A DNA stretch of 64,000 bases from an uncultured Halobacteriales archaeon (GTDB taxonomy: Archaea; Halobacteriota; Halobacteria; Halobacteriales; Hikarchaeaceae), in the NCBI GenBank assembly GCA_964597855.1, contig CAZQZO010000007.1, forward strand, positions 3,094-67,093. The letters run 5' to 3'. The position numbers were made by a program, and so were the translations under genes. Of this stretch, positions 2,014 through 21,190 are shown in pieces; position 1 is the stretch's first letter; every line of letters starts with the position of its first letter. The notes beneath the pieces were generated by a model. The model saw nothing but the letters and a program-made list of their open reading frames with translations, was not told where the DNA came from and did no database searches.

Positions 2014-2289
2014 TCACCCTCCACTCATAGGGGGAATAATTGCTAGTTCATCATCATTTTCCAATGCCAATTGTGAAAATTTTTCTCCTCTCATTTCTTC
2101 ACCATTACATAGCACTTGAACATGATTCAATACTCCACCTTGCTCATCCATCACCAATTCTCTTAAATTTGGTATCTGATCGAATAGATCTTCCAGCGCA
2201 TCCTCAATTGTGATCCCACTATCCATTCTTATCTCAATTTCTCTCTCCCCTGCAATCTCTGCAAAATTGGCAAAAAGTTTCCATTTCAT
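2014..2289 (-). CDS. samp1: Ubiquitin-like small archaeal modifier protein (SAMP1/MoaD-like)
   Basis: MKWKLFA N-terminus typical of haloarchaeal SAMP1; beta-grasp size; C-terminal PPMSGG di-glycine. Confidence 0.9.
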   Translation of the reverse strand: MKWKLFANFAEIAGEREIEIRMDSGITIEDALEDLFDQIPNLRELVMDEQGGVLNHVQVLCNGEEMRGEKFSQLALENDDELAIIPPMSGG

Positions 2290-2304
2290 GATGATTCAAT
2301 CTAC

Positions 2305-3030
2305 CTAAAGTAATAAACTCGCATCCAATGCTATTTGGCCCATTTCTTGAATACTATCTCGTATTTTTTTCGGAAATTCTTCCCCCTCAGTTTCGCCCTT
2401 TTTAGACCCTTCTACTAAATTCCCATCCACCGTGAGTATGGAACCTGCTTCTATTCCCAATCTCCTGGCAAGCGTCAAAATAACCGAAGTCTCCATCTCA
2501 ATAGATAGCAATCCCGAATTCTCCCATATTTTTACGTACTCTTCTGTCTCTGCATAATATGCATCATTGGTTACTATGGCACCCACATGGAATTTATGAT
2601 CATGTCGTTTTGCCACATCTACCAAAGCAGAAACAACCTGATAATCCGAAACTGCTGGGTATACTTCTGATTCATACCTTTTTGTCGTTCCTTCTTCTTT
2701 AGCAGCCCCTGTAACTATGATAAATTCCCCAGTTTTAATCCCCCTTTGAAGTGCACCTGTTGTTCCCACTCTGATTATTTTCTTCACTCCAACCTTACAA
2801 AGTTCTTCAACGGCTATCGCAGCAGATGGACAACCAATCCCTGTAGAACAAACGGTCAAACCCTTCCCTTTATAATCTATATTGCAAATTTTGTATTCTC
2901 GATTCTCAGAAATAACTTCATATTCATCTGCCAATGCTGCAATCATCTCCACTCGATTAGGATCACCTGGTAGTAATGCAATTTCATTCAACTCCCCCTC
3001 CCCTACGAGCAAGTGTGGCTGTTTTCCCAT
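2305..3030 (-). CDS. Nucleoside phosphorylase (uridine phosphorylase/PNP family)
   Basis: LPGDPNRV, STGIGCPS, RVGTTG and EMET motifs. Confidence 0.9.
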   Translation of the reverse strand: MGKQPHLLVGEGELNEIALLPGDPNRVEMIAALADEYEVISENREYKICNIDYKGKGLTVCSTGIGCPSAAIAVEELCKVGVKKIIRVGTTGALQRGIKTGEFIIVTGAAKEEGTTKRYESEVYPAVSDYQVVSALVDVAKRHDHKFHVGAIVTNDAYYAETEEYVKIWENSGLLSIEMETSVILTLARRLGIEAGSILTVDGNLVEGSKKGETEGEEFPKKIRDSIQEMGQIALDASLLL

Positions 3031-3040
3031 ATTCTTATTT

Positions 3041-3862
3041 CTATCCTACTACTGAATATAATATCAGGTTATGCATTCCTGGACCAATACCAATCGCAAT
3101 CATCACTATTAACAAAATTCTTGCATACAAAGGCTTTTCTTTTGTATAATCCACAAACAAAAAAACTAGGGCAATCGCCAATACGATCTTAACACATACA
3201 AACAACCAACTCACACCAATAATATTCGCAACGGGGAGTGATGCACCAATGTCTAATATCATTTGGGAAATTGGGGTCTGCTCCTTAAAATTCAATATGT
3301 CAATCCCAATTGCCGTAGATGTCCCATCTAGAGTCTGTCCTATGATAACTAGCAAACCAGTGCTTCCCAACACCTTTGGAATTTCTGCACTTTTTCTTTT
3401 CACCGCCTCCCACACTAAAATAGAAACAACCAATGCAACCACCAACCCCACGATCGACCATGCTGGATTGGTCCACCCCTCTCTGGATAAAACCACCATC
3501 GTAGTGCCAAACCCAATCAATCCACTCCCCATCAGAATTTTTTCTGCAATCTGATCCCTTTTAAGGAGCAAAACCACCGACCAGACACAACCCAATATGA
3601 CAAACGTAGTGATGTACACTGTTGGGTTCCCTAGTAGGAATGAAATACTTTCTAACTTTCCGTATTCTTTCAAACCCATCACACCCACGACACGCAAACC
3701 CGCACCAAATGCCATCCATGGAATCAAAGATATAATGATATCCTCATCGATTCTTATCTCACATTTCCAAAGAACCATTGCAATTATTCCTGCACAAATT
3801 AAGATCCCAATCAGATATGGGGCCGAGGGAATTCCAAAATCTGAAGGAAGGATATCTAACAT
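3041..3862 (-). CDS. DUF63-family integral membrane protein
   Basis: Multiple hydrophobic helices; PWMAFG, QTLDGTST, IGPGMHN motifs resemble archaeal DUF63. Confidence 0.7.
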   Translation of the reverse strand: MLDILPSDFGIPSAPYLIGILICAGIIAMVLWKCEIRIDEDIIISLIPWMAFGAGLRVVGVMGLKEYGKLESISFLLGNPTVYITTFVILGCVWSVVLLLKRDQIAEKILMGSGLIGFGTTMVVLSREGWTNPAWSIVGLVVALVVSILVWEAVKRKSAEIPKVLGSTGLLVIIGQTLDGTSTAIGIDILNFKEQTPISQMILDIGASLPVANIIGVSWLFVCVKIVLAIALVFLFVDYTKEKPLYARILLIVMIAIGIGPGMHNLILYSVVG

Positions 3863-3951
3863 ACCCGTTATTATTTCGGATACCCCAAAGCCATTACGAC
3901 TATGAGAATACCGTCGTGTTTTTGTTCCCCCTGATAATACATCTAATCACA

Positions 3952-5202
3952 ATGGCTTCGTATCACATCGAAACTTATGGATGCACAGCCAATCAAGGAG
4001 AAAGTAAACTAATTGAACAGTTACTTCGCGACGCAGGACATTATAAAGTCGAAAACCCCGAATCCGCAGACGTAGCAATTCTAAACACCTGTACTGTCAT
4101 AGAAAAAACTGAACAAACGATGTTGTCTAGGGCGAAAGAACTAGAATCTCTAGTATCTGATCTAATCGTCACCGGATGTCTCGCACTCGCCCAGCCCGAT
4201 CTCATCCACGAATCTGGGATCGACGCTCGTGTATGTGGATGGGATGAAGTACCTCTGGCCGTTGGAAATGGCGAGTGCCCCACAACTACAAAAGACACGC
4301 TACCCATCATAGATGGTGTAATTGGAATCCTGCCCATCGCCCGCGGATGCATGTCTGATTGTTCTTATTGCATCACAAAAAAAGCAACAGGAAAAATCGA
4401 ATCTCCACCTATCGCAGAAAATGTTTCTAAAGCCCGAAATTTAATAAAAGCCGGAGCAAAAGAAATCCGAGTAACTGGACAGGATACTGGAGTATACGGA
4501 TGGGACCTTGGAGAGCGATTGTTGGATCAGTTACTCGACGAAATTTGTGAACTCCCCGGTGATTTTCGTGTTCGATTAGGAATGGCGAACCCTAAAGGAA
4601 TTCATGGCATTTGCAAATCTCTTGCAAACGTGTTCTCTAAACATGAAAAACTCTATGATTTTATCCATGCACCTGTGCAATCTGGATCCAATACAGTTCT
4701 AGGTCATATGCGACGCCAACACCAAGTAAACGAATTTAGAGACATCGTGTCTATTTTCAATCAACATTTAGATCATTGGACTCTAGCGACGGATTTCATT
4801 GTTGGATTCCCAACCGAAACAACCGAAGATCACCAACAATCACTAAATCTAATACGAGAAGTCCAGCCGGAGCGAATTAATATAACACGATTTTCTAAAC
4901 GCCCCGGTACCGATGCAGCAAAATTAAAAGGTCTTGGGGGGACTCTTAAAAAACAACGTTCATCTGAAATGACACAACTTAAACTCGAAATAACTTCCCA
5001 AGCATACCGATCTATGATTGGAACTCGCCACACTCTTCTTGCGGTTGAACCTGGGATCAATGGCTCTATGAAGTGTAGGGATGAGGCATATCGCCAGGTA
5101 ATAATAAAGGATTTTGAAGATTATGGAATTACCCCAGGAACGTTCATACAGTCGCAGATAGTTTCCTCTGAACACGTTTATGCGTTCGCCGAACCAGTGT
5201 AG
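3952..5202 (+). CDS. Radical-SAM tRNA methylthiotransferase (MiaB-like, e-MtaB type)
   Basis: ETYGC..N and NTC N-terminal UPF0004 domain; CMSDCSYC radical-SAM motif; C-terminal TRAM domain. Start moved to ATG 3952 because the longer ORF overlaps the divergent gene. Confidence 0.9.
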   Translation: MASYHIETYGCTANQGESKLIEQLLRDAGHYKVENPESADVAILNTCTVIEKTEQTMLSRAKELESLVSDLIVTGCLALAQPDLIHESGIDARVCGWDEVPLAVGNGECPTTTKDTLPIIDGVIGILPIARGCMSDCSYCITKKATGKIESPPIAENVSKARNLIKAGAKEIRVTGQDTGVYGWDLGERLLDQLLDEICELPGDFRVRLGMANPKGIHGICKSLANVFSKHEKLYDFIHAPVQSGSNTVLGHMRRQHQVNEFRDIVSIFNQHLDHWTLATDFIVGFPTETTEDHQQSLNLIREVQPERINITRFSKRPGTDAAKLKGLGGTLKKQRSSEMTQLKLEITSQAYRSMIGTRHTLLAVEPGINGSMKCRDEAYRQVIIKDFEDYGITPGTFIQSQIVSSEHVYAFAEPV

Positions 5203-6706: not shown

Positions 6707-7597
6707 CTATTTCGTTGTTATCTCGCACCCATTCTTTGTCACAATCACTGTGTGCTCAGCCTGACTCACTAGTTTGTTTTTTTGCTCCCTCAAAACAGGA
6801 TACCCTCTAATGATTCTTGCCATTTTTAACCTCTGTAAAGCGATTTTACCTTGTGATTCTTCCACCCACCTCGCAGCAAAAGGAAGCGTCTTATATCTAT
6901 CTTCAATCAGTGCAACAAGTTCTCTTGACCTTCTCCCTCTGATCGAGCGCCTTTGAATTAAAGAAAATATCTCTTCTTTACCACCTTCCGTTACTTTTCC
7001 CCCTCCTTCTGTAGCAAAAGGTTCAATCGCAACGACATCTCCAATTTCTAATCTCACCCCCGTTTCAATAGCGCAGTTAGGGATGTTTGGTCCTATATGT
7101 GCATCGTACTCTCCCACACCATGGCCCGAAAGATTGATTATCGAATTATATCCCATTCTATCAATTTTCGATTCTATTACTTCTCCTATTTTTCCAACAT
7201 TCACCCCTGGCTCTATCAACTCTAACGCAGCTTTTAATGCCTCCTCTGCAGCCTCCACAAGCTTTGGATTCCCCGATAGGTCCACAGTTTTGGCAGCATC
7301 TGCAATCCAACCATCAACATGAACTCCTATATCTAAACAGATCATTTCCTCCCCAAATTTGGTTTTTTCACCCATACCCGGTGTCGAGTGAGAAGCTTCT
7401 TCATTTATACTTATGTTTACTGGAAATGCTGGTTCTCCTCCCATTTCCCGAATTCTATTTTCTGCAAACTCTGCCACTTCCAAATGAGTCACACCCACTT
7501 CAATTCTCTTCACGGTTTCCGAAAGTGTCTCTGCAAGAATTTTCCCCGCAGCACGATGTTTTTCGTATTTTTCAGATTTAAGATCTACTTCTTCCAC
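6707..7597 (-). CDS. map: Type II methionine aminopeptidase
   Basis: FPVNIS..HSTP, DIGVHVDG..AD, GHG, IEPF, Q.EHT metal ligands. Confidence 0.95.
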   Translation of the reverse strand: MEEVDLKSEKYEKHRAAGKILAETLSETVKRIEVGVTHLEVAEFAENRIREMGGEPAFPVNISINEEASHSTPGMGEKTKFGEEMICLDIGVHVDGWIADAAKTVDLSGNPKLVEAAEEALKAALELIEPGVNVGKIGEVIESKIDRMGYNSIINLSGHGVGEYDAHIGPNIPNCAIETGVRLEIGDVVAIEPFATEGGGKVTEGGKEEIFSLIQRRSIRGRRSRELVALIEDRYKTLPFAARWVEESQGKIALQRLKMARIIRGYPVLREQKNKLVSQAEHTVIVTKNGCEITTK

Positions 7598-7636
7598 AAC
7601 CCACTTCCTATATATTTTTCATTATTTCCCGTAAAT

Positions 7637-8020
7637 TTATACTTCGTCTTCACCGACTAAAACAGCATTCACCTGACCGGTTTGCCCGGGTCTAGATGTC
7701 ACCCTAGCCCTTCCTTCACTGGTGTCTATTATTGCACCCTTTGTAATCACATTACGACGGACGTAATTCAAATTAGCTGCATTCGAAACTACATTCTCTA
7801 TGGTAGCTGTCATTGATTTCGTTCCATCAGAAACAGTGACTTTGTCAATCGATAATGCTCTAACTTTTTGTGATTTACTCCTCGAATTGAATATTTGTCT
7901 CCGCGTCTCTCCAATATTGGTATTTGCTGGCAGCCGACCAAGTTCTGATTTTCTCTTTTTCCGGAAAGAACTCAGCCGTCCACCCGTTTTCGTTCTCTTC
8001 GAACGGCCTTGAAACTGCAT
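7637..8020 (-). CDS. rps8e: 30S ribosomal protein eS8
   Basis: GRSKRTKTGG, RRNVITKGAII, VTSRPGQTG.VNAV. Confidence 0.96.
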   Translation of the reverse strand: MQFQGRSKRTKTGGRLSSFRKKRKSELGRLPANTNIGETRRQIFNSRSKSQKVRALSIDKVTVSDGTKSMTATIENVVSNAANLNYVRRNVITKGAIIDTSEGRARVTSRPGQTGQVNAVLVGEDEV

Positions 8021-10900: not shown

Positions 10901-11731
10901 ATGACTCGAACAGTTCTCGTACCTTCTTCGCTCACCCGGGAAACCGAGGATATGCGAATGGCGACTCTGAAAATAGGCTACATAGCCCGTGCGGCTGCCA
11001 TTTTCAACATAGATCGCATTTGCGTTTTCCCCGATCCCCTGGGTGAAGGCGATTTAGGTATGGAATTTATCAGCACCGTTTTGGGATACGCTGTGACTCC
11101 TCCGTATCTTCGTAAAGAAATATGGGGGCAGCGCCCAGAATTGGCTTATGCTGGAGTCTTACCACCTCTTAGAATCTTACCACAGGCCGGCTCTGGATCA
11201 GAAGATTCAGAGTCGTTAAGACAAGGAATAGTGACCCAGGTCGGACCTGATAATCGCGTTTGGGTAATTTGCGGACTGCAAAACCCAATTTCCCTAACAA
11301 TCCCCACTAATATGGATATTGTAGAGGGACAACGCGTTTCTGTCAGAATATCTTCCGAAAAACCAGTCCGGGCTCGACTACTGACCGATTCTATACCAGG
11401 AATCTTAGTCGAGAACACCGATCTAGAATCTGCATTAGAACGTAATGATGCGGGAGTTAGAATCGCTGCATCCCGGTATGGGAATCCACTCGAAAATAAG
11501 AACCTCGATGATCTTATTACTCGAGTAAATCGGGAGGGAATGACAGTTGCATTTGGGGCCCCCGGCAGGGGTTTGCCAACGATTCTTGGGTTAGACCCCA
11601 TAGAAATACTTGAGCCAGATATCCCTGGCCCCAAGTTCGATTGCTGGCTCAATACAATTCCAAACCAAGGCAGTGAAACGGTGCGAACTGAAGAGGCAAT
11701 GATAGCCTCTCTCGCATTGTTCTCACTCTAA
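10901..11731 (+). CDS. SPOUT RNA methyltransferase (DUF171/C9orf114 family)
   Basis: IGYIARAAAIF, YAVTPPYLRK, GVLPPL, NTIPNQGSETVRTEEA; usual position at the head of the archaeal uL3 operon. Confidence 0.9.
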   Translation: MTRTVLVPSSLTRETEDMRMATLKIGYIARAAAIFNIDRICVFPDPLGEGDLGMEFISTVLGYAVTPPYLRKEIWGQRPELAYAGVLPPLRILPQAGSGSEDSESLRQGIVTQVGPDNRVWVICGLQNPISLTIPTNMDIVEGQRVSVRISSEKPVRARLLTDSIPGILVENTDLESALERNDAGVRIAASRYGNPLENKNLDDLITRVNREGMTVAFGAPGRGLPTILGLDPIEILEPDIPGPKFDCWLNTIPNQGSETVRTEEAMIASLALFSL

Positions 11732-11744
11732 CACACAACCAACC

Positions 11745-12758
11745 ATGCCTAGAACGCATAGACCTCGAAAAGGCTCACTCGCATTTGGCCCCCGAAAACG
11801 CGCGGCGGATCACGTCCCGCGATTTAATTCATGGCCAGAAGGCGACAATGAGCCGAAGCTCCAGGGTTTTGCAGGATATAAAGCCGGAATGACACATATA
11901 GTTGCAACAAATGATCAGCAACATTCTCCTCTTTTTGAAATGGAACAAACATTCCCCGTAACCATTGTTGAAACCCCTCCTATGCATGCTCTTGCCGTTC
12001 GAGCATATGAAAAAACCCCGTATGGACTCTATCCTTTAACCGAAGCATGGGTCGGCGATTATCATGAAACATTGAGCAGGTCTTTATCTCCTCCTAAAAA
12101 ATCCAAATTAGATGAAACGGAGAAAACACTAAGAGAATTATCTGATCAGAATAAAATCGAAGACATACGGATGATAACCCACACTGTTCCATCCTCGATA
12201 TCTGGAATCCCGAAGAAAAAACCAGATTTAATGGAAACAAGAATTGGTGGGGGCTCTATTTCTGAAAGATTGGATTTTGCACTTAATCTCTTACATGATG
12301 GTGGAATCCACAACGTGAGCGATATTTTCTCTGAAGGCGATTACCTTGATGTAACAGGCATCACAAAAGGAAAAGGGACACAAGGACCTGTCAAACGTTG
12401 GGGGGTTCAAAAACGGAAAGGGAAACACTATCGCCAAGGGTTCAAACGACGTATCGGAAATCTCGGACCTTGGAATCCCTCCCGTGTACGATCTACTGTA
12501 CCTCAACAGGGTCAAACCGGTTACCACCAACGCACAGAATATAACAAACGCCTCGTTTCTATCGGAAATGCAGATGAGGCATCTGTATCTGGTGGATTCA
12601 TAGGATATGGAGAAGTTAATGGGCCACATATACTCGTACATGGTTCTCTGCCCGGTCCTCAAAAACGTCTATTGAGATTCCGTCCAGCAATACGACCAAA
12701 TAGGCTTAATTCACCCATTGAAATTCATCACATTTCCAAAGCATCAAATCAAGGATAA
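11745..12758 (+). CDS. rpl3: 50S ribosomal protein uL3
   Basis: PRKGSLAFGPRKRA, GYKAGMTH, TKGKGTQGPVKRWG. Confidence 0.98.
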   Translation: MPRTHRPRKGSLAFGPRKRAADHVPRFNSWPEGDNEPKLQGFAGYKAGMTHIVATNDQQHSPLFEMEQTFPVTIVETPPMHALAVRAYEKTPYGLYPLTEAWVGDYHETLSRSLSPPKKSKLDETEKTLRELSDQNKIEDIRMITHTVPSSISGIPKKKPDLMETRIGGGSISERLDFALNLLHDGGIHNVSDIFSEGDYLDVTGITKGKGTQGPVKRWGVQKRKGKHYRQGFKRRIGNLGPWNPSRVRSTVPQQGQTGYHQRTEYNKRLVSIGNADEASVSGGFIGYGEVNGPHILVHGSLPGPQKRLLRFRPAIRPNRLNSPIEIHHISKASNQG

Positions 12759-12764
12759 TTTACT

Positions 12765-13508
12765 ATGAAAGCTACACTATTCAATCTTAAAGGAACTAAA
12801 GAAGGAACGGTAGATCTTCCCTCAACTTTCAATACCCCTTATCGTCCAGATTTAATTCAAAAAGCTGTAGTAGCCTCTCAAGCAAATCGAAAACAACCTT
12901 ATGGTGCCGATCCATTTGCTGGGAAAAGAACTTCTGCAGTGTCTTTAGGTACTGGACGTGGACTTGCACAGGTTCCCCGATCCAATGGACGAGGAAGAAA
13001 ATCACCAAACACTAACAGTGGCCGAAGATGCCACCCCCCTAAATCTACTAAATCTTATTCTTTAAAAATAAATGACAAAGAACGACGATTAGCAATTCGA
13101 AGCGCCATTGCCGCAACAGCAAATGTAGACCTAGTCCGTTCTAGAGGGCACAACTTCGATGATAAAATTACTTTACCCATTGTGATAACCGATGATCTTT
13201 CCGATTTAACAAAAACGAAAGAAGTCATCGACGTCTTAAACAATATTGGGATCTCTTCTGATCTCGATAGGTCTGCTTCACCAAAAGTCCGTGCAGGACG
13301 AGGAAAAACTAGAGGGAGAAAGTACAAACGTTCTAAATCTATTCTGTTAGTTACTTCTGGAAAAGCACTTTTAGCTGCACAGAATGTCCCCGGAGTGGAT
13401 GCAGTAACAGCTAGTGAAGTTAATACAGAAGATCTAGCACCTGGGACTCATGCTGGGAGATTAACAATATGGACTGAAAGCGCTATCAAAGAGGTGGAAA
13501 ACAAATGA
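12765..13508 (+). CDS. rpl4: 50S ribosomal protein uL4
   Basis: RPDLIQKAV, GTGRG.A.VPR, LAPGTHAGRLT. Confidence 0.98.
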   Translation: MKATLFNLKGTKEGTVDLPSTFNTPYRPDLIQKAVVASQANRKQPYGADPFAGKRTSAVSLGTGRGLAQVPRSNGRGRKSPNTNSGRRCHPPKSTKSYSLKINDKERRLAIRSAIAATANVDLVRSRGHNFDDKITLPIVITDDLSDLTKTKEVIDVLNNIGISSDLDRSASPKVRAGRGKTRGRKYKRSKSILLVTSGKALLAAQNVPGVDAVTASEVNTEDLAPGTHAGRLTIWTESAIKEVENK

Positions 13509-14924: not shown

Positions 14925-15383
14925 ATGGGAATCAACTATTCAGTACAATCCGATCAAAACACAACTGCTAGGGCAATAATCCGCAACCAACCAATAAGCC
15001 CAAAACACTCCCGAGAAATATCCCGGGCAATTAAAGGAAAAACAACGTCCGATGCTATATCTTATTTAGAAGATGTAATAGCTCTAAAACGGTCTATTCC
15101 CTTCCGAACCCATAATGCTGGAGTAGGGCACCGAAAAGATATAATTGGTTGGGATGCTGGAAGGTATCCTCAAAAAGCCTCTCGTGCATTCTTAAAATTA
15201 TTAACTAACGCCATGGGGAATGCAGACAACAAAGGTCTAGATTCACCCTCTATGAAGATAGTGCATGTTGCAGCGCATAAAGTTGGGGTCCGGCGTGGCA
15301 GAAAACCCAGGGCGTTCGGCCGTGCCACCCCTTGGAACACAACACTAGTAGACGTTGAACTAATTTTGGAGGCTGATTCCTAA
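14925..15383 (+). CDS. rpl22: 50S ribosomal protein uL22
   Basis: ISPKHSREI, GRYPQKA, PRAFGRATP; ATG 14925 preferred as start. Confidence 0.97.
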   Translation: MGINYSVQSDQNTTARAIIRNQPISPKHSREISRAIKGKTTSDAISYLEDVIALKRSIPFRTHNAGVGHRKDIIGWDAGRYPQKASRAFLKLLTNAMGNADNKGLDSPSMKIVHVAAHKVGVRRGRKPRAFGRATPWNTTLVDVELILEADS

Positions 15384-16336
15384 TGGCAGATGAACATCAA
15401 TTCATACAAAAAGGACTGAAAAATTCTCAAATAAATGAGTATCTAGAGTCTACACTTCAACGTGCAGGATATGGGGGCATGGAAATAGCAAAAACTCCCA
15501 TGGGGACTCAAATCGTACTCAAAGCAGAAAAACCTGGGATGGTAATTGGAAAAAGTGGCAAAAAAATACGTGAGATAACCGCAGCTCTCAAAGCCAATTT
15601 CGATCTAGACGATCCCCAAATAGATGTACAAGAGATCAACGAACCCGATCTGAACGCACAAATAGTTGCTGATAGATTGGCCAACGCATTGGAACGTGGC
15701 TGGTATTTCCGAAAAGCGGGCCACACAACAGTAGACCGAATTATGTCCTCAGGAGCACTAGGTGCAGAAATCGTTTTATCCGGAAAAGTTACTGGGGCAC
15801 GTGGCAGAGTTGAAAAATTCAATCGCGGATATATCAAACATAATGGTGAACCTGCCGCAGAAATAGTCGATCGGGGCCAATCCGTGGCAATACTCAAACT
15901 AGGTACTATCGGAGTAAATGTAAAAATCATCCCTCCTGGTGCCCAACTGCCTGACGATTTCAGAATCCTTGACACAATCCCTGGTGAAGAAGAACCAACT
16001 GAATCTGATTCTGGTCCAGAAACCGAGGCAATAGATGATCTATTGGCCCCAACACCCGAATCTACAGAACCTACAGATGATTCTGATCCCGCACCCGCTG
16101 TAGAAGAAATAATAGTGGAAAAAGAGGCACAATCCCCTCCTAAGGAAGAAACCAATCTCAAACTAACAGATCTTCCAGGTGTCGGCCCTTCAAAAGCCCA
16201 AGCACTCGAAGAAGCAGGATTCGATACTATCGAGGCACTACAAGCCGCAGGAGTAACCGATCTCGCTGCAGTTCCAGGAATCAGTGAAAATCTCGCCGAG
16301 AAAATCAAAACGTCTCTTGATAAAGGTGATAATTGA
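15383..16336 (+). CDS. rps3: 30S ribosomal protein uS3 with acidic Pro-rich linker and C-terminal helix-hairpin-helix module
   Basis: KH domain (PGMVIGKSG) and uS3 C-domain to about aa 200; linker; then [12 protein letters not shown]...[15 protein letters not shown]. Confidence 0.97.
16154..16305 (+). repeat. 152-bp perfect direct repeat, copy 1 (HhH module in rps3)
   Basis: AATCTCAAACTAACAGATCTTCC...GAAAATCTCGCCGAGAAAAT, compared base by base with 20270-20421: no mismatch found. Confidence 0.97.
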
Positions 16337-16554
16337 TGGCTTCTCTCCGACCCTCTGAAATTAGAGATATGACCTCTGAAGAAAGGCAATCCGAACTCGA
16401 GAAGTTGTCTACAGAATTATTGAATGCGCGTGCAATACAATTTGCTGGAGGTTCCTCCGACCACCCTGGATTGGCTCGGGAATTACGCCGAACAATAGCT
16501 AGAATCAAAACTATTCAAAAAGAACAAGAAACCACAGATGAGGTCTCCTCATGA
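16336..16554 (+). CDS. rpl29: 50S ribosomal protein uL29
   Basis: LRPSEIRDM...[11 protein letters not shown]; ATG overlaps the rps3 TGA. Confidence 0.96.
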
Positions 16555-16841
16555 TTCAAATACTCCCTGAGAATTTATCACGACACGAGTTGATAGGACT
16601 TGAAGCACAAGTAGCAGCAGCATCAAACCAATCCCACATCGGTATTTCTGGTCGTATCATTGACGAAACGATGAAGACCTTCCAAATTGAGAACCATGAC
16701 CAAACCCAAATGGTACCCAAATCTGGAACCACATTTGAAGTAAAATTACCAGGTGGAGACTATGCAGTAGTTGAGGGAAACCATCTAATTTCTCGCCCGT
16801 CACGCAGGACACAAAAAGCAGGAGGATCAATATGGCACTAA
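16551..16841 (+). CDS. rnp1: RNase P protein subunit Rpp29
   Basis: RHELIGL, G.IIDET; usual position between uL29 and uS17. Confidence 0.92.
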
Positions 16842-17176
16842 AATCAAATGTAATAAAAACTGATGGTGGTAGCTCCAAACAAAACACCAATTCACCCAAG
16901 CCCATTTCTGTTAGAGGCAGTGTGTTGGAGGGAATTGTAGCTTCTACCTCTATGGATAAAACCGTGATAGTCGAACGTGAATATGTTGTATTTATACCAA
17001 AATACGAGAGATATATGAAACGCCGGTCAAGAGTACCTGCCCACGTTCCACAAGGCATAGAACTCGAAGTTGGAGACCAAGTTAAAATAGCCGAAACACG
17101 ACCAATCTCCAAAACCAAGTCACACGTTGTTGTGGAAATAACGAAACGGATTTCAGACAAAGGAGATGGAGTATGA
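16832..17176 (+). CDS. rps17: 30S ribosomal protein uS17
   Basis: [24 protein letters not shown]. Confidence 0.96.
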
Positions 17177-17571
17177 AATCAATTACATCTAGCATCAGTA
17201 GAGGTATACCAAAAGGAGCAAAACTCGTTTGCGCAGACAACACCGGAGCCCGGGAATTAAATTTAATTAGTGTCGCTGGGTACCACGGAACTATCAACAG
17301 ACTCCCGACAGCTGGAATCGGTGATAAAATCACCGTATCCGTCCGTAAAGGATCCCCTGAAATGCGACGTCAAATACTCCAAGCAGTTATCGTCCGGCAA
17401 AAACAATCTTTCAGACGACCCAGTGGCCTCCGTGTCAAATTTGAGGACAATGCCGCAGTATTAATCGATGACATGGGCGAACCCCGTGGAACCGAAATCA
17501 AAGGTCCAATCGCCAGAGAAGTAGCCGAGCGTTTTGGAGGTATAGCCAGTACGGCAACAACTATAATTTAA
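17173..17571 (+). CDS. rpl14: 50S ribosomal protein uL14
   Basis: [24 protein letters not shown]. Confidence 0.98.
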
Positions 17572-17575
17572 AATC

Positions 17576-17929
17576 ATGACAACACAACCTCGTAAACAAA
17601 GAAAACGACAATATAATGCACCATTGCATTTACGACATAAGCAGCTCAACGCAGCTTTGTCTTTGGAGTTACGTGAAAAACACGGTCGAAGAAGCACTCG
17701 TGTCAATACTGGTGATGCAGTTGAAGTCATGCGTGGGGATCTAGCGGGAGAAACAGGTACTGTGTCCCGGGTGGATCTAAAAGCGAAACTAGTTTTCGCA
17801 GACGGAATCACCGCAGAAAAAGGCGATGGAGAAGAATATTTACTCCCTCTAGTTGCTTCCAATCTACGTATCACAAAATTAAACCTTTCTGACACGCTGC
17901 GAAAATCAAAGCTGGAGGAAACATCATGA
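17576..17929 (+). CDS. rpl24: 50S ribosomal protein uL24
   Basis: QPRKQRK, NAPLH.RHK, GD.VEVMRGD KOW motif. Confidence 0.97.
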   Translation: MTTQPRKQRKRQYNAPLHLRHKQLNAALSLELREKHGRRSTRVNTGDAVEVMRGDLAGETGTVSRVDLKAKLVFADGITAEKGDGEEYLLPLVASNLRITKLNLSDTLRKSKLEETS

Positions 17930-18627
17930 CCCGGCATCAAAAACGTCTCTCCGCCCCTGCTTCGTGGCCAGTCGAAAGGAAAACCTCCGTTTATACAGTC
18001 AAAGCTGGAGCAGGACCTCATGGAAATAGTGGAGTTCCTCTACTTATAATAATCCGAGACGTACTTCAGTATGTCACTTCCTCAAAAGAAGCAGATTATG
18101 CCCTAAGAAGCCGATCAATTATGATCAATGGCAGAGTTGTAACTGACCCCAAACGCTCTGTTGGTATGTTTGATATATTGGCCTTCCTAGACCGAGATGA
18201 ATACTACCGTATCTTTCCTGATTCTGGAGGGCGTCTAAATCTAACTCCCATCAGTCCCGAAGCAGCCACTTCGAAACTCAGTAAAATAACTGGAAAATCG
18301 CAACTATCTCCTCAATTAATACAACTAGCTTTGCATAACGGTACTACTCTAACGGTACCAAATCCAACCGAGTATTATGTTGGAGATTCACTTATCACTG
18401 ACAATGAAACCGGAGATATAGCTGCTCACTTCCCCTACAAAGAGGGGGCGTTGGTTACTGTAATTGGTGGATCTCATGCTGGAGAAATTGGCATTTTAAA
18501 AACCATTAGCGTTCGATCTGGGAGCTCTGCAAATGTAGTTGAAGTAAAAACAGACACCAATACCTTCGATACTGTAGAAAAATACATAGTCGTTATCGAC
18601 GAAAAATTCACAGGAGTTGGAAGTTAA
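17926..18627 (+). CDS. rps4e: 30S ribosomal protein eS4
   Basis: [20 protein letters not shown]. Confidence 0.97.
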
Positions 18628-18628
18628 C

Positions 18629-19153
18629 ATGTCCGTACAAAGCACCAACTCTATGCGCGATCCCCGCATCGAAAAAGTAGTTGTACACATGGGTGTGGGT
18701 GAAGCTGGGAAGAAACTCCAGAATGCAGAGGAAATACTCAATGCAATCACTGGACAAACTGGAGTTCAAACCATATCAAAATCTACTATAGCAGACTTTG
18801 GAATCCGAAAAGGTGATCCCATAGGGGCAAAAGTCACTCTCCGAAGCAAAGCAGCAGTTGAGTTTCTCAAACTAGCATTGCCCCATGCAAATATCTCCAA
18901 AAGCTCTTTCGATAATGAGGGAAATTTGAGTTTTGGACTTTCTGAACACATAGTTTTCCCAGATCAAGATTATAATCCTTCTATTGGGCTCTATGGACTT
19001 GATGTAACTGTAGTCCTCAACCGCGCAGGCGCGCGAATAAAACGACGAAGACGTAGATCTAAATCTATCCCAATGTCTCACCGTCTAACTACCGAAGAAT
19101 CGGTAACTTTCATTGAATCAACTTTCAATGTGGAGGTCCAATCTGATGAATAA
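18629..19153 (+). CDS. rpl5: 50S ribosomal protein uL5
   Basis: [25 protein letters not shown]; ATG 18629 preferred as start. Confidence 0.97.
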
Positions 19154-19328
19154 CGAACAAATAGAAGAAATAGAACAAAATCAGGAACCTACAATCGCAA
19201 CTGGTCAAAATCATTCGTGTAGACGTTGCGGACGTAAACAAGGTCTCGTCAGTAAGTACAACATTTGGCTTTGTCGCCAGTGTTTCCGCGAATTAGCAAG
19301 AAATGTGGGGTTTAAAAAATACTCATGA
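19146..19328 (+). CDS. rps14: 30S ribosomal protein uS14 (zinc-binding)
   Basis: CRRCG...LCRQCFRE; ATG 19146 preferred as start. Confidence 0.96.
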
Positions 19329-19717
19329 CAGGAAATGATCCACTATCCGATGCCCTATCTGGGCTAAACAATGCCGAAAATGCTGGGCACCTACAATATA
19401 CAGCAAAACCCGCATCAAAGCTTATTGGTAATGTTTTCGAAGTCTTTCACGACCATGGATACATAGGCCAATTTGAACATATCCAAGATGGAAAATCAGG
19501 ATACTTCGATGTTGAACTAAAAGGAGCCATCAACAAATGCGCCCCAATCAAACCGCGTTATTCTATCGCCCTCTCCAATTTTGAGAAGTGGGAGAAAAGA
19601 TATCTCCCTGCACAAAATTATGGTGCACTAGTTTTGACCACTAGTCAAGGCGTAATGAGTCATTACGAGGCCAGAAAAGCTGGAATTGGAGGCCAGCTCC
19701 TAGCATACATTTATTGA
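19325..19717 (+). CDS. rps8: 30S ribosomal protein uS8
   Basis: [21 protein letters not shown]. Confidence 0.97.
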
Positions 19718-19723
19718 ATAATC

Positions 19724-20260
19724 ATGGAAAAAATAGAAATCAAAATCCCAGAAAACGTAACGGCACAACTAGATCAACTAGATCTATCGGTCGAGGGTCC
19801 AAACGGAAAGGTTTCAAAACGTTTCCAATACCCTGGTCTTCTCCTACACTCAACTGAGAATTCTATAATAATAGAGCGTTCTTCTGAAACTAAGAAAACA
19901 ATCGCTATGACCGGAACCTTTAGAAGTCACATTTTGAACATGTTCCACGGGGTGACCGCAGGCTGGACCTATGAACTTGATATTCTCTATGCTCACTTCC
20001 CTATGCAAGTCAGCGTGAATCAAAGTTCTGTAATAATCGATAACTTCCTTGGAGAGCGACATCCTCGAAAAACCAAAATCCATGGTGAAACAACTGTTTC
20101 AATTGATGGAGAAAAAGTTCTTGTAACTGGCCCTGATATTGAAGCAGTTGGACAAACCGCTGGGTCAATAGAACAATTAACTACTATTAAAGATAAAGAT
20201 CCCCGGGTCTTCCAAGATGGTATTTATATCACAAAAAAACCCGTTAGAGGTGAAGCATAA
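19724..20260 (+). CDS. rpl6: 50S ribosomal protein uL6
   Basis: GPNG, YAHFPM, NFLGE, DPRVFQDGIY. Confidence 0.97.
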   Translation: MEKIEIKIPENVTAQLDQLDLSVEGPNGKVSKRFQYPGLLLHSTENSIIIERSSETKKTIAMTGTFRSHILNMFHGVTAGWTYELDILYAHFPMQVSVNQSSVIIDNFLGERHPRKTKIHGETTVSIDGEKVLVTGPDIEAVGQTAGSIEQLTTIKDKDPRVFQDGIYITKKPVRGEA

Positions 20261-21190
20261 ATGTCTGGTAATCTCAAACTAACAGATCTTCCAGGTGTCG
20301 GCCCTTCAAAAGCCCAAGCACTCGAAGAAGCAGGATTCGATACTATCGAGGCACTACAAGCCGCAGGAGTAACCGATCTCGCTGCAGTTCCAGGAATCAG
20401 TGAAAATCTCGCCGAGAAAATAAAGGAAGCAGTTCAAACATTGGAACAAGAAACCCCCTCTGCAGATCCGCCCTCTGAACCAGTTCCTACTGATTCAAAC
20501 GACGATTTCCTAAGTATAAGTGGAATCACTCCTGCCCGTGCAGATTCTCTCCGTGCAGCTGGATTTAAGACCATAGACGATATCACAAACGCGAGCCAAG
20601 ATGAGCTCTCTTCGATTGAAGGAATAAGCACTGCTTTAGCAGCTAGAATAAAAGCCAGCATAGGTGATATAGATCTTGAAGAAAAAGTAACTCCCCCCAC
20701 GACGCCACCCGTTGAAGACACTCCCGATCCCACCGCAGTTGAACTTCGCCCCCGTGGACATGTTGGAAAACTTCCTGAACTAGGCCCCAAAGACAAACGA
20801 TTATTGGCCCAAAAACAACGCGAAGGAAAACCAACTTTCAATCGCCAAGACGGCCATATGAAAAAAAGACTCACTAAGAATAAACACAAGTCAGTTTGGA
20901 GAAGACCTCGCGGAACGCATTCCAAACAACGACGAAGAAGAGGGGGACACGGAGAGGTTGTTCGAGCTGGGTATCGGACTCCCGTTTCTGTTCGCGGTCT
21001 CCATGCTAGTGGATTTAAAGAGGTTCACGTCCACCGGCCTGAAGATTTATCCGATATCGACCCGGCCATTGAAGCCATCCGTATTGCGGCATCTGTTGGC
21101 AACCGAAAACGAGAACGAATCGAAGATATCGCAGAGGAAAATGGAATCCGCGTCCTTAACCCCTCTTACGAAGAGGTGAGTCTACAATGA
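20261..21190 (+). CDS. rpl32e: 50S ribosomal protein eL32 with two N-terminal helix-hairpin-helix modules
   Basis: HhH modules at about aa 4-55 and 83-131; eL32 core (WRRPRG..SK, GYRTP, RGLHASG, VLN) in the last ~130 aa. Confidence 0.96.
   Translation: MSGNLKLTDLPGVGPSKAQALEEAGFDTIEALQAAGVTDLAAVPGISENLAEKIKEAVQTLEQETPSADPPSEPVPTDSNDDFLSISGITPARADSLRAAGFKTIDDITNASQDELSSIEGISTALAARIKASIGDIDLEEKVTPPTTPPVEDTPDPTAVELRPRGHVGKLPELGPKDKRLLAQKQREGKPTFNRQDGHMKKRLTKNKHKSVWRRPRGTHSKQRRRRGGHGEVVRAGYRTPVSVRGLHASGFKEVHVHRPEDLSDIDPAIEAIRIAASVGNRKRERIEDIAEENGIRVLNPSYEEVSLQ
20270..20421 (+). repeat. 152-bp perfect direct repeat, copy 2 (first HhH module in rpl32e)
   Basis: Identical to 16154-16305; flanks differ immediately (ACC vs GGT before; C vs A after). 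Confidence 0.97.

Follow-up and report, generated by a model that had tools for sequence, protein, structure and literature searches.

The window analysed here is a stretch of 64,000 nucleotides (nt) from an uncultured Halobacteriales archaeon (contig CAZQZO010000007.1, positions 3,094 to 67,093 of the forward strand, assembly GCA_964597855.1). In its main ribosomal-protein operon, the genes of uS3 (rps3) and eL32 (rpl32e) contain the same cassette, which encodes a helix-hairpin-helix (HhH) module. Copy A (16154–16305, + strand) encodes amino acids (aa) 258–308 of uS3 and copy B (20270–20421, + strand) aa 4–54 of eL32. The two copies are direct repeats in the same orientation, 4116 nt apart. 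They match at 152 of 152 bases, and the alignment given by a repeat finder reaches 155 nt and includes one mismatch. Pfam HHH_5 is also detected in both proteins, and the claim of a first-pass annotation that rps3 and rpl32e have one exact HhH module in common is confirmed. The cassette edges are sharp, the identity falling to background within 1–3 nt on either side. The tract corresponds approximately to the Pfam domain in the window genome and is 12–33 nt longer in related genomes, so that the further claim that identity stops at the domain edges is right only in approximation. No third copy was found in the 64-kb window with up to three mismatches (0 matches expected from shuffled sequences), and the repeat search of the window found no inverted repeats at the cassette ends. 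A mobile element, such as a miniature inverted-repeat transposable element, was rejected on account of the absence of terminal repeats and the presence of only two copies in 64 kb. This reading is also opposed by the cassette being in frame and encoding a folded domain, and by the copies found on two other proteins, TatC and RNA polymerase A'' (RpoA''), which are old and cluster by gene.

The uS3 gene (15383–16336, + strand, from the list of open reading frames (ORFs)) encodes 317 aa with Pfam matches to KH_2, Ribosomal_S3_C and, at aa 260–312, HHH_5. It consists of a KH and S3_C core (aa 1 to ~205), an acidic proline-rich linker (~206–257), the (HhH)2 module and an eight-residue tail, TSLDKGDN. 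The protein matches the full-length NCBIfam equivalog NF003219 (TIGR01008) with 335.9 bits, for a cut-off of 147. The eL32 gene (20261–21190, + strand, from the same list) encodes 309 aa that match HHH_5 twice and Ribosomal_L32e (PF01655) at aa 190–300. A first (HhH)2 module is followed by a linker, a second (HhH)2 module, another linker and the core (aa ~165–309). The match to NF009401 (316.2 bits, cut-off 239) is limited to aa 77–308. The second module (DDFLSISGITPARADSLRAAGF..., 20501–20665, + strand) aligns to positions 6–62 of NF009401 and to the N-termini of haloarchaeal eL32 in the PDB; judged by these alignments, it corresponds to the only HhH that classical haloarchaeal L32e has. Since the haloarchaeal eL32 model covers aa 77–308 only, the N-terminal HhH common with uS3 is an extra module. 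It belongs to a different subfamily, with about 35% protein identity to the ancestral HhH.

Ten translation genes, called essential, lie between the copies (16336–20260, + strand; ORFs, with Pfam labels on the identical contigs L001 and L097). Their order is uL29, RNase P Rpp29, uS17, uL14, uL24, eS4, uL5, uS14, uS8 and uL6. The operon positions uL22-uS3-uL29 and uL6-eL32-eL19 are the same in all related loci.

The HHH_5 family (PF14520) is recognized unambiguously by Pfam, with 54.9 bits in uS3 and 98.9 bits in eL32 (two stretches), the cut-off being 27, and the glycine-rich hairpins LPGVG and VPGIS can be read in the sequence. In the AlphaFold2 model of eL32, both HhH modules have a predicted local distance difference test score (pLDDT) of about 88–91, and the linkers, aa 65–79 and 137–151, are below 50. 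Helices span residues 15–24, 29–34, 37–41 and 48–64 of eL32, with pLDDT of about 88–90. The uS3 model is poor overall (mean pLDDT 47, shallow alignment) and was used only for the pattern of module and linker: the HhH module scores about 75 with the same helix pattern, and the linker (aa 200–258) is below 50. By its predicted structure, the cassette product is a canonical five-helix (HhH)2 domain, in which a connector helix joins the two HhH motifs. In uS3, it is preceded by an acidic, proline-rich linker of about 55 residues that is predicted to be disordered.

The window has a G+C content of about 42%. The uS3 core has about 80% identity to its counterparts in Halobacteria, and its close matches are all marine and metagenomic. 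A scan of species-representative genomes retrieved the cassette from ‘Marine Group IV archaeon HikBin1’, with 96% protein identity, and from other metagenome-assembled genomes (MAGs) of Marine Group IV. These sequence relationships place the source lineage in Marine Group IV (Hikarchaeia), close to Ca. Hikarchaeum yamanae, which has streamlined genomes of about 1.2 Mb with about 41% GC (PMC7599335). That paper mentions neither HhH nor gene conversion.

Operon loci from related genomes were gathered by exact-protein look-ups and by the scan of species-representative genomes, and seven genomes were compared, the window included. The uS3 and eL32 copies show no difference over a tract of 152 nt in the window and in L013 (HikBin1), and one mismatch over the same length in L006. 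They are also without differences over 164 nt in L008 (HikBin5 species) and over 175 nt in L011. Four mismatches are present over 185 nt in L009, and about three, at the edge, over 175 nt in L017 (~172/175). Tract length is lineage-specific (152, 164, 175 or 185 nt) and the edges are abrupt. Within each of the seven genomes, the DNA identity of the copies is 98–100% over the 152–185 nt, whereas the same module shows 66–95% identity between genomes, in step with the uS3 core DNA (78–94%). The copies are more alike within than between genomes, which is what the first-pass annotation had predicted for concerted evolution. Clustering of orthologous copies by gene, which it had named as the contrary sign, is not seen: the copies cluster by genome and their flanks by gene. 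Paralogues share the base in every genome at 58 of the 64 variable alignment columns. The synonymous divergence (dS, Nei-Gojobori) is 0–0.08 between paralogues, 0.24–0.28 between orthologues of close strains, and at least 1, that is saturated, between clades. The ratio of nonsynonymous to synonymous divergence (dN/dS) of the module is 0.06–0.15 for most pairs and about 0.4 for the closest pair. The module is constrained as a protein yet homogenized at the DNA level, as its dN/dS is low and the dS between paralogues is 0–0.08.

The second HhH of eL32, about 80 nt downstream of the tract, provides a control. It has about 50% DNA identity to the cassette in the same genome, and 71–99% between orthologues. 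Two further controls come from the Pfam-confirmed occurrence in Marine Group IV of the same module subfamily at the cytoplasmic N-terminus of TatC (L015 6998–7939, L016 7001–7939) and at the C-terminus of RpoA'' (L018 5720–7189, L019 3573–5021, L020 5720–7177). As neither the TatC nor the RpoA'' gene is in the 64-kb window, the within-genome comparison was made with HikBin5. These modules have 56–76% DNA identity to the uS3/eL32 cassette, compared with about 50% for the second HhH of eL32. All three controls cluster by gene; on this pattern, the TatC and RpoA'' copies are not converted. Gene order, insertion points, linkers and junction codons are orthologous in all seven genomes. The codons at the edge are gene-specific, ATC AAA in uS3 and ATA AAG in eL32, and are kept in the window, L006 and L013.

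The copies are very probably kept identical by recurrent non-reciprocal recombination, that is intrachromosomal gene conversion, their identity probably being a by-product and not a functional need. Mutations that arise in one copy are presumably either erased by conversion or passed on to the other. A crossover between the direct repeats would delete the ten essential genes and be removed by selection, so that only conversions would persist. Conversion would continue since the divergence of the copies never becomes large enough to stop recombination. In some genomes, one to four single-base differences persist between the copies and are not yet erased. Of the two origins that the first-pass annotation had offered, ongoing gene conversion is the right mechanism, given the within-genome identity and the saturation of synonymous sites between clades across seven genomes. 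Very recent domain shuffling is unlikely, as the same junctions are found across lineages with uS3 core DNA that is only 78–79% identical. Junctions conserved at this distance point to an old duplication that has been homogenized time and again.

Several points weigh against this interpretation or limit it. The G+C content at third codon positions of the cassette is not elevated over that of the second HhH of eL32 or of the gene cores, meaning that there is no signature of biased conversion, and GC-biased conversion was rejected for this reason. Identity within single cells or molecules is deduced from consensus contigs. All the genomes are metagenome assemblies of an uncultured lineage. The recombination events are read from the sequence pattern, which is compatible with either direction of conversion and with either gene having been the first to acquire the module. 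The function attributed to the module derives from likeness of sequence and fold, and the cassette module is net acidic (about −4), which is unexpected for a simple DNA binder outside halophiles.

The within-genome identity could also have arisen if the domain had been duplicated independently and very recently in each lineage, instead of an old duplicate being continually converted. HhH2 modules are indeed promiscuous, the same subfamily being present on TatC and RpoA'' in Marine Group IV, and the number of HhH copies in L32e varies from one to four among haloarchaea. New duplications would however have had to fall at the same two positions, between orthologous linkers and junction codons, in all seven genomes, and precise replacement in place seven times amounts to gene conversion. 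Intermediate states with one to four unconverted differences are also at odds with this scenario, which is very unlikely.

Alternatively, selection might hold the copies identical. Both subunits might have to carry exactly matching tags for a single partner, or the cassette might itself be a functional DNA or mRNA element, for example an RNA structure or a binding site. Purifying selection does act on the module (dN/dS about 0.1), which is found on four gene-expression or export machines in Marine Group IV. Selection on the protein cannot, however, fix about 38 synonymous sites within a genome while the same sites are saturated between genomes, and a nucleotide element should be conserved between genomes, which the cassette is not. 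A hidden RNA element was rejected, as the cassette has no Rfam match and its RNA fold is no better than that of shuffled sequences (z = −0.98). Since lineages with the same architecture also tolerate 45–60% amino-acid divergence between the tags, maintenance of identity by selection is highly improbable.

These lineages are of two kinds. A uS3 with HhH together with an eL32 with two HhH is found in two uncultured high-GC haloarchaeal lineages (L093 and L094, 70% GC; L095, 67% GC), where the uS3 copy has only 74–81% DNA identity to either eL32 copy. The corresponding genes are at 7001–8002 (uS3) and 12024–12986 (eL32) in L093, and at 3487–4584 and 8762–9715 in L095. In Thermoplasmatota-type MAGs (L024, L043 and probably L033), a uS3 with HhH coexists with an HhH-eL32, the copies having about 45–50% protein identity. 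Loci of uS3-HhH2 and HhH2-eL32 in MAGs are at 522–1499 in L022, 6149–7186 and 11355–12326 in L024, and 2156–3040 and 7359–8195 in L043, with a probable further case in L033; the copies have diverged, and the labels of these four MAGs read Thermoplasmatales, Thermoplasmatota or Methanobacteriota. As the same architecture tolerates diverged copies, the function does not need identity, and the identity in Hikarchaeia is probably a by-product of conversion. The earlier inference from identity to a shared binding partner or a subunit-bridging role does not follow, given the diverged copies of L093–L095, L024 and L043. No HhH match was found downstream of the uS3 core in the sampled Halobacteria loci that extend over the uS3 region, which come from MAGs as well as cultured strains (L021, L023, L026, L027, L031, L036, L037, L046). 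The uS3 module of L095 is closest to the second HhH of eL32 (80.7% over 150 nt, ungapped), a hint that this copying was independent or took place earlier. In L024, the N-terminal half of the uS3 module has nearly the same protein sequence as the Hikarchaeia cassette, perhaps because the module was transferred among marine archaeal groups or because constraint is strong.

A short-read assembler or polisher could in principle have homogenized copies that are merely similar, or created a fusion by mis-joining. The 152-nt repeat is close to the read length, contigs do end within it, and chimeric joins exist in public data (the P0121 type on 12 contigs, P0126 on L106). The exact 152-nt cassette was, however, retrieved with the correct unique flanks from eight other assemblies, obtained from different samples with different assemblers: in the uS3 context on L001–L005, in the eL32 context on L096 and L098, and in both on scaffold L097. 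Lineage-specific versions are present in six other genomes. In all, seven genomes, built by different groups with different assemblers, show the within-genome identity, with cassettes that differ from one another by 5–34%. Copies that differ by one base (L006) or four (L009) were kept distinct by the assemblers. Lineages with diverged copies (L093–L095, L024, L043) share the gene architecture, so neither fusion is a mis-join.

The contig ends themselves are informative, as breaks and random joins are expected of an exact repeat, not of near-identical copies. Contigs L001, L014, L029, L030, L044 and L081 end inside the cassette, and the published HikBin4 and HikBin5 are among the MAGs affected. 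Of these contigs, L029 and L030, from HikBin5, share a 77-nt end inside the repeat, and L081 and L014 overlap by 55 nt inside the repeat, both lengths being exactly a k-mer length (k). L030 (4124 nt) and L044 (4129 nt) consist of the inter-repeat segment only. L100 is a graph-cycle contig of 4235 nt (4116 + 119) with a terminal overlap of 119 nt. The caution raised at the outset about homogenization by the assembler is answered in the negative by the eight assemblies, the surviving one- and four-base differences and the breaks at k, and an artefact of this kind is extremely improbable.

Chimeric ORFs do result from the repeat. On 12 contigs, ORFs of 63–67 aa labelled ‘L32e’ (P0121, P0123–P0125; L100–L105) consist of the eL32 start (‘MSDN’), the cassette and the uS3 tail, between uL6 and uL29. 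P0126 (L106 1976–2961) is a hybrid of the uS3 linker and eL32 on a scaffold with a 10-N gap; its reading as a conversion tract extended into the uS3 linker was rejected, as it is a scaffold join across the 10 Ns. A database search with the 58-aa cassette alone returned five short fragments, which are such assembler chimeras. The chimeric ORFs are best explained as assembler paths through the exact repeat.

In addition to conversion, some of the chimeric junctions (uL6-cassette-uL29, uS3 linker-cassette-eL32) might be real products of unequal crossing-over, that is a tandem duplication of the 4.1-kb segment, its excision as a circle, or its loss from one of the chromosome copies where cells are polyploid. 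Direct repeats that undergo conversion can also cross over, and the uL6-cassette-uL29 junction is present on 12 contigs from at least six samples, some with more than 1 kb of flanking sequence on one side (L102–L104). Reads of 100–150 nt cannot, however, span the repeat. De Bruijn graphs hold the same path as a cycle, and the length of L100 is exactly the period plus k. The sole contig of the deletion type is the scaffold join across Ns, and a deletion alone would be lethal. Real crossover products among these junctions are unlikely.

In prokaryotes, interlocus gene conversion is known to have kept duplicated genes in long-lasting concerted evolution, as with tufA/tufB and the methanogen genes mtrA, mtmB/C and mtbB/C (PMC6053082). 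As in these cases, paralogues are closer within a genome than orthologues are between genomes, the duplication is old as judged by synteny, the pattern persists over deep divergence, and the genes are core and highly expressed. In those cases, whole paralogous genes are homogenized. Here, a single module of 152–185 nt is homogenized in two otherwise unrelated genes, and uS3 and eL32 each evolve as a normal orthologue outside of it. The 26 genes that this survey lists include no ribosomal-protein domain. In the polyploid Haloferax volcanii, gene conversion is highly efficient and can be set off by single-nucleotide differences (PMC8223754). Its class is the sister of Hikarchaeia, and such conversion offers a plausible enzymology for the homogenization. 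Conversion in H. volcanii is however an intermolecular process that equalizes the chromosome copies, and its tracts measure from 600 bp to more than 5 kb (PMC8223754), whereas it would be ectopic here, within one chromosome, and confined to 152–185 nt of homology.

All the defining features of concerted evolution by interlocus gene conversion that can be checked on sequences are found, and the process is of this known kind at a new locus, not the undescribed system that had been suggested. Searches of the literature for HhH in connection with L32e, eL32 or extensions of haloarchaeal ribosomal proteins found nothing relevant, and concerted evolution at the uS3/eL32 HhH module appears to be undescribed in the searchable literature. 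It is an unusually clean case of domain-scale concerted evolution between two non-paralogous essential ribosomal-protein genes, belonging to different subunits, across a family-level clade. The unconverted sister domain 80 nt away and the TatC and RpoA'' copies are built-in controls. The pattern indicates that homologous recombination is active in this streamlined marine archaeon, and sets a bound of about 150 nt, at a distance of 4.1 kb, on the homology that suffices. In practice, short-read assemblies of Marine Group IV are broken or wrongly joined at the repeat, within a ribosomal-protein operon that is used for binning and phylogenomics, and chimeric ‘proteins’ are now in public databases. 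As the HhH parts of uS3 and eL32 violate orthology, they should be trimmed from ribosomal-protein phylogenomics of these lineages.

Regarding the role of the module, purifying selection (dN/dS ~0.06–0.15) implies that it has some function. The sequences of solved structures nearest to the cassette are the N-termini of haloarchaeal eL32, the N-terminal domain of Rad51/RadA, the C-terminal domain of the RNA polymerase alpha subunit (alpha-CTD), UvrC and the AR repeats of NusA. The RadA/Rad51 N-terminal domain, the bacterial alpha-CTD, NusA AR1/AR2 and the UvrC C-terminus are five-helix modules on flexible linkers that bind the DNA backbone or another (HhH)2. Their likeness to the ribosomal modules is one of sequence and fold only. 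The haloarchaeal eL32 with an N-terminal HhH (NF009401/PRK12766; Haloarcula marismortui, 1JJ2 and 1S72) matches over its full length aa 77–308 of the window eL32, which differs from the classical protein by the additional N-terminal HhH, the module shared with uS3. In the PDB, the L32e chains of H. marismortui are given as 240–241 aa and as an ordered part of 142–143 aa (3g4s_Y, 1ffk_V). These chain lengths are consistent with the HhH part being mobile on the 50S subunit, and this fits the linkers modelled here. Our best guess is that the cassette encodes a flexibly tethered module at the ribosome surface, which might contact a nucleic-acid backbone or a protein partner.

Judging from the sequences, one (HhH)2 module family has spread to four transcription, translation and export machines in Hikarchaeia. 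uS3 is located at the mRNA-entry side of the 30S subunit and eL32 on the 50S subunit, and pairing between such tags has precedents in NusA-AR2 with alpha-CTD and ERCC1 with XPF. It is conceivable, but quite unlikely, that the four tags form a common docking system, by way of the nucleoid, a shared partner or mutual pairing, which would couple transcription, translation and Tat export, conversion serving to co-adapt the tags of the two subunits. If so, these processes would be physically coupled by docking tags in a streamlined marine archaeon of 1.2 Mb, and conversion between the ribosomal copies would be tolerated or favoured for keeping the tags of both subunits co-adapted.

An exhaustive search of representatives with the cassette retrieved 582 proteins, mostly with multiple HhH. 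Pfam analysis of nine of these identified isoleucyl-tRNA synthetase (IleRS), proteins with tetratricopeptide repeats (TPR) or a zinc ribbon, DUF4013 and uS3, which shows HhH2 to be promiscuous. Halobacteriales MAGs commonly encode eL32 proteins of 411–497 aa in which three or four HhH2 appear to stand in tandem (P0131–P0134, P0139, P0141, P0147, P0154, P0166, P0172, P0194, P0210). From such comparisons, the HhH copy number of eL32 is evolutionarily labile. The IleRS-like proteins P0248, P0287 and P0293 (tRNA-synt_1 and Anticodon_1) have two or three C-terminal HhH2, and P0248 and P0287 end in a DUF835 domain; a further translation component is tagged in this way. The uS3/eL32 case draws attention to a recurrent theme of archaea from marine and halophilic groups, namely HhH2 tags on uS3, eL32, RNA polymerase A'', TatC and IleRS.

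Most of the operon genes between 12758 and 23305 overlap or abut by 1–4 nt, for example with TGATG at the uS3/uL29 junction (16334–16338), and translational coupling is implied by this spacing. The ATG of eL32 directly follows the TAA of uL6; owing to this tight junction, the conversion tract starts only 9 nt past the eL32 start codon. The Rfam family RF03135 (L4-Archaeoglobi ribosomal-protein leader) is matched at 11247–11346 on the + strand, upstream of uL3, the first gene of the operon, with 55.7 bits, above the gathering score of 34.5.

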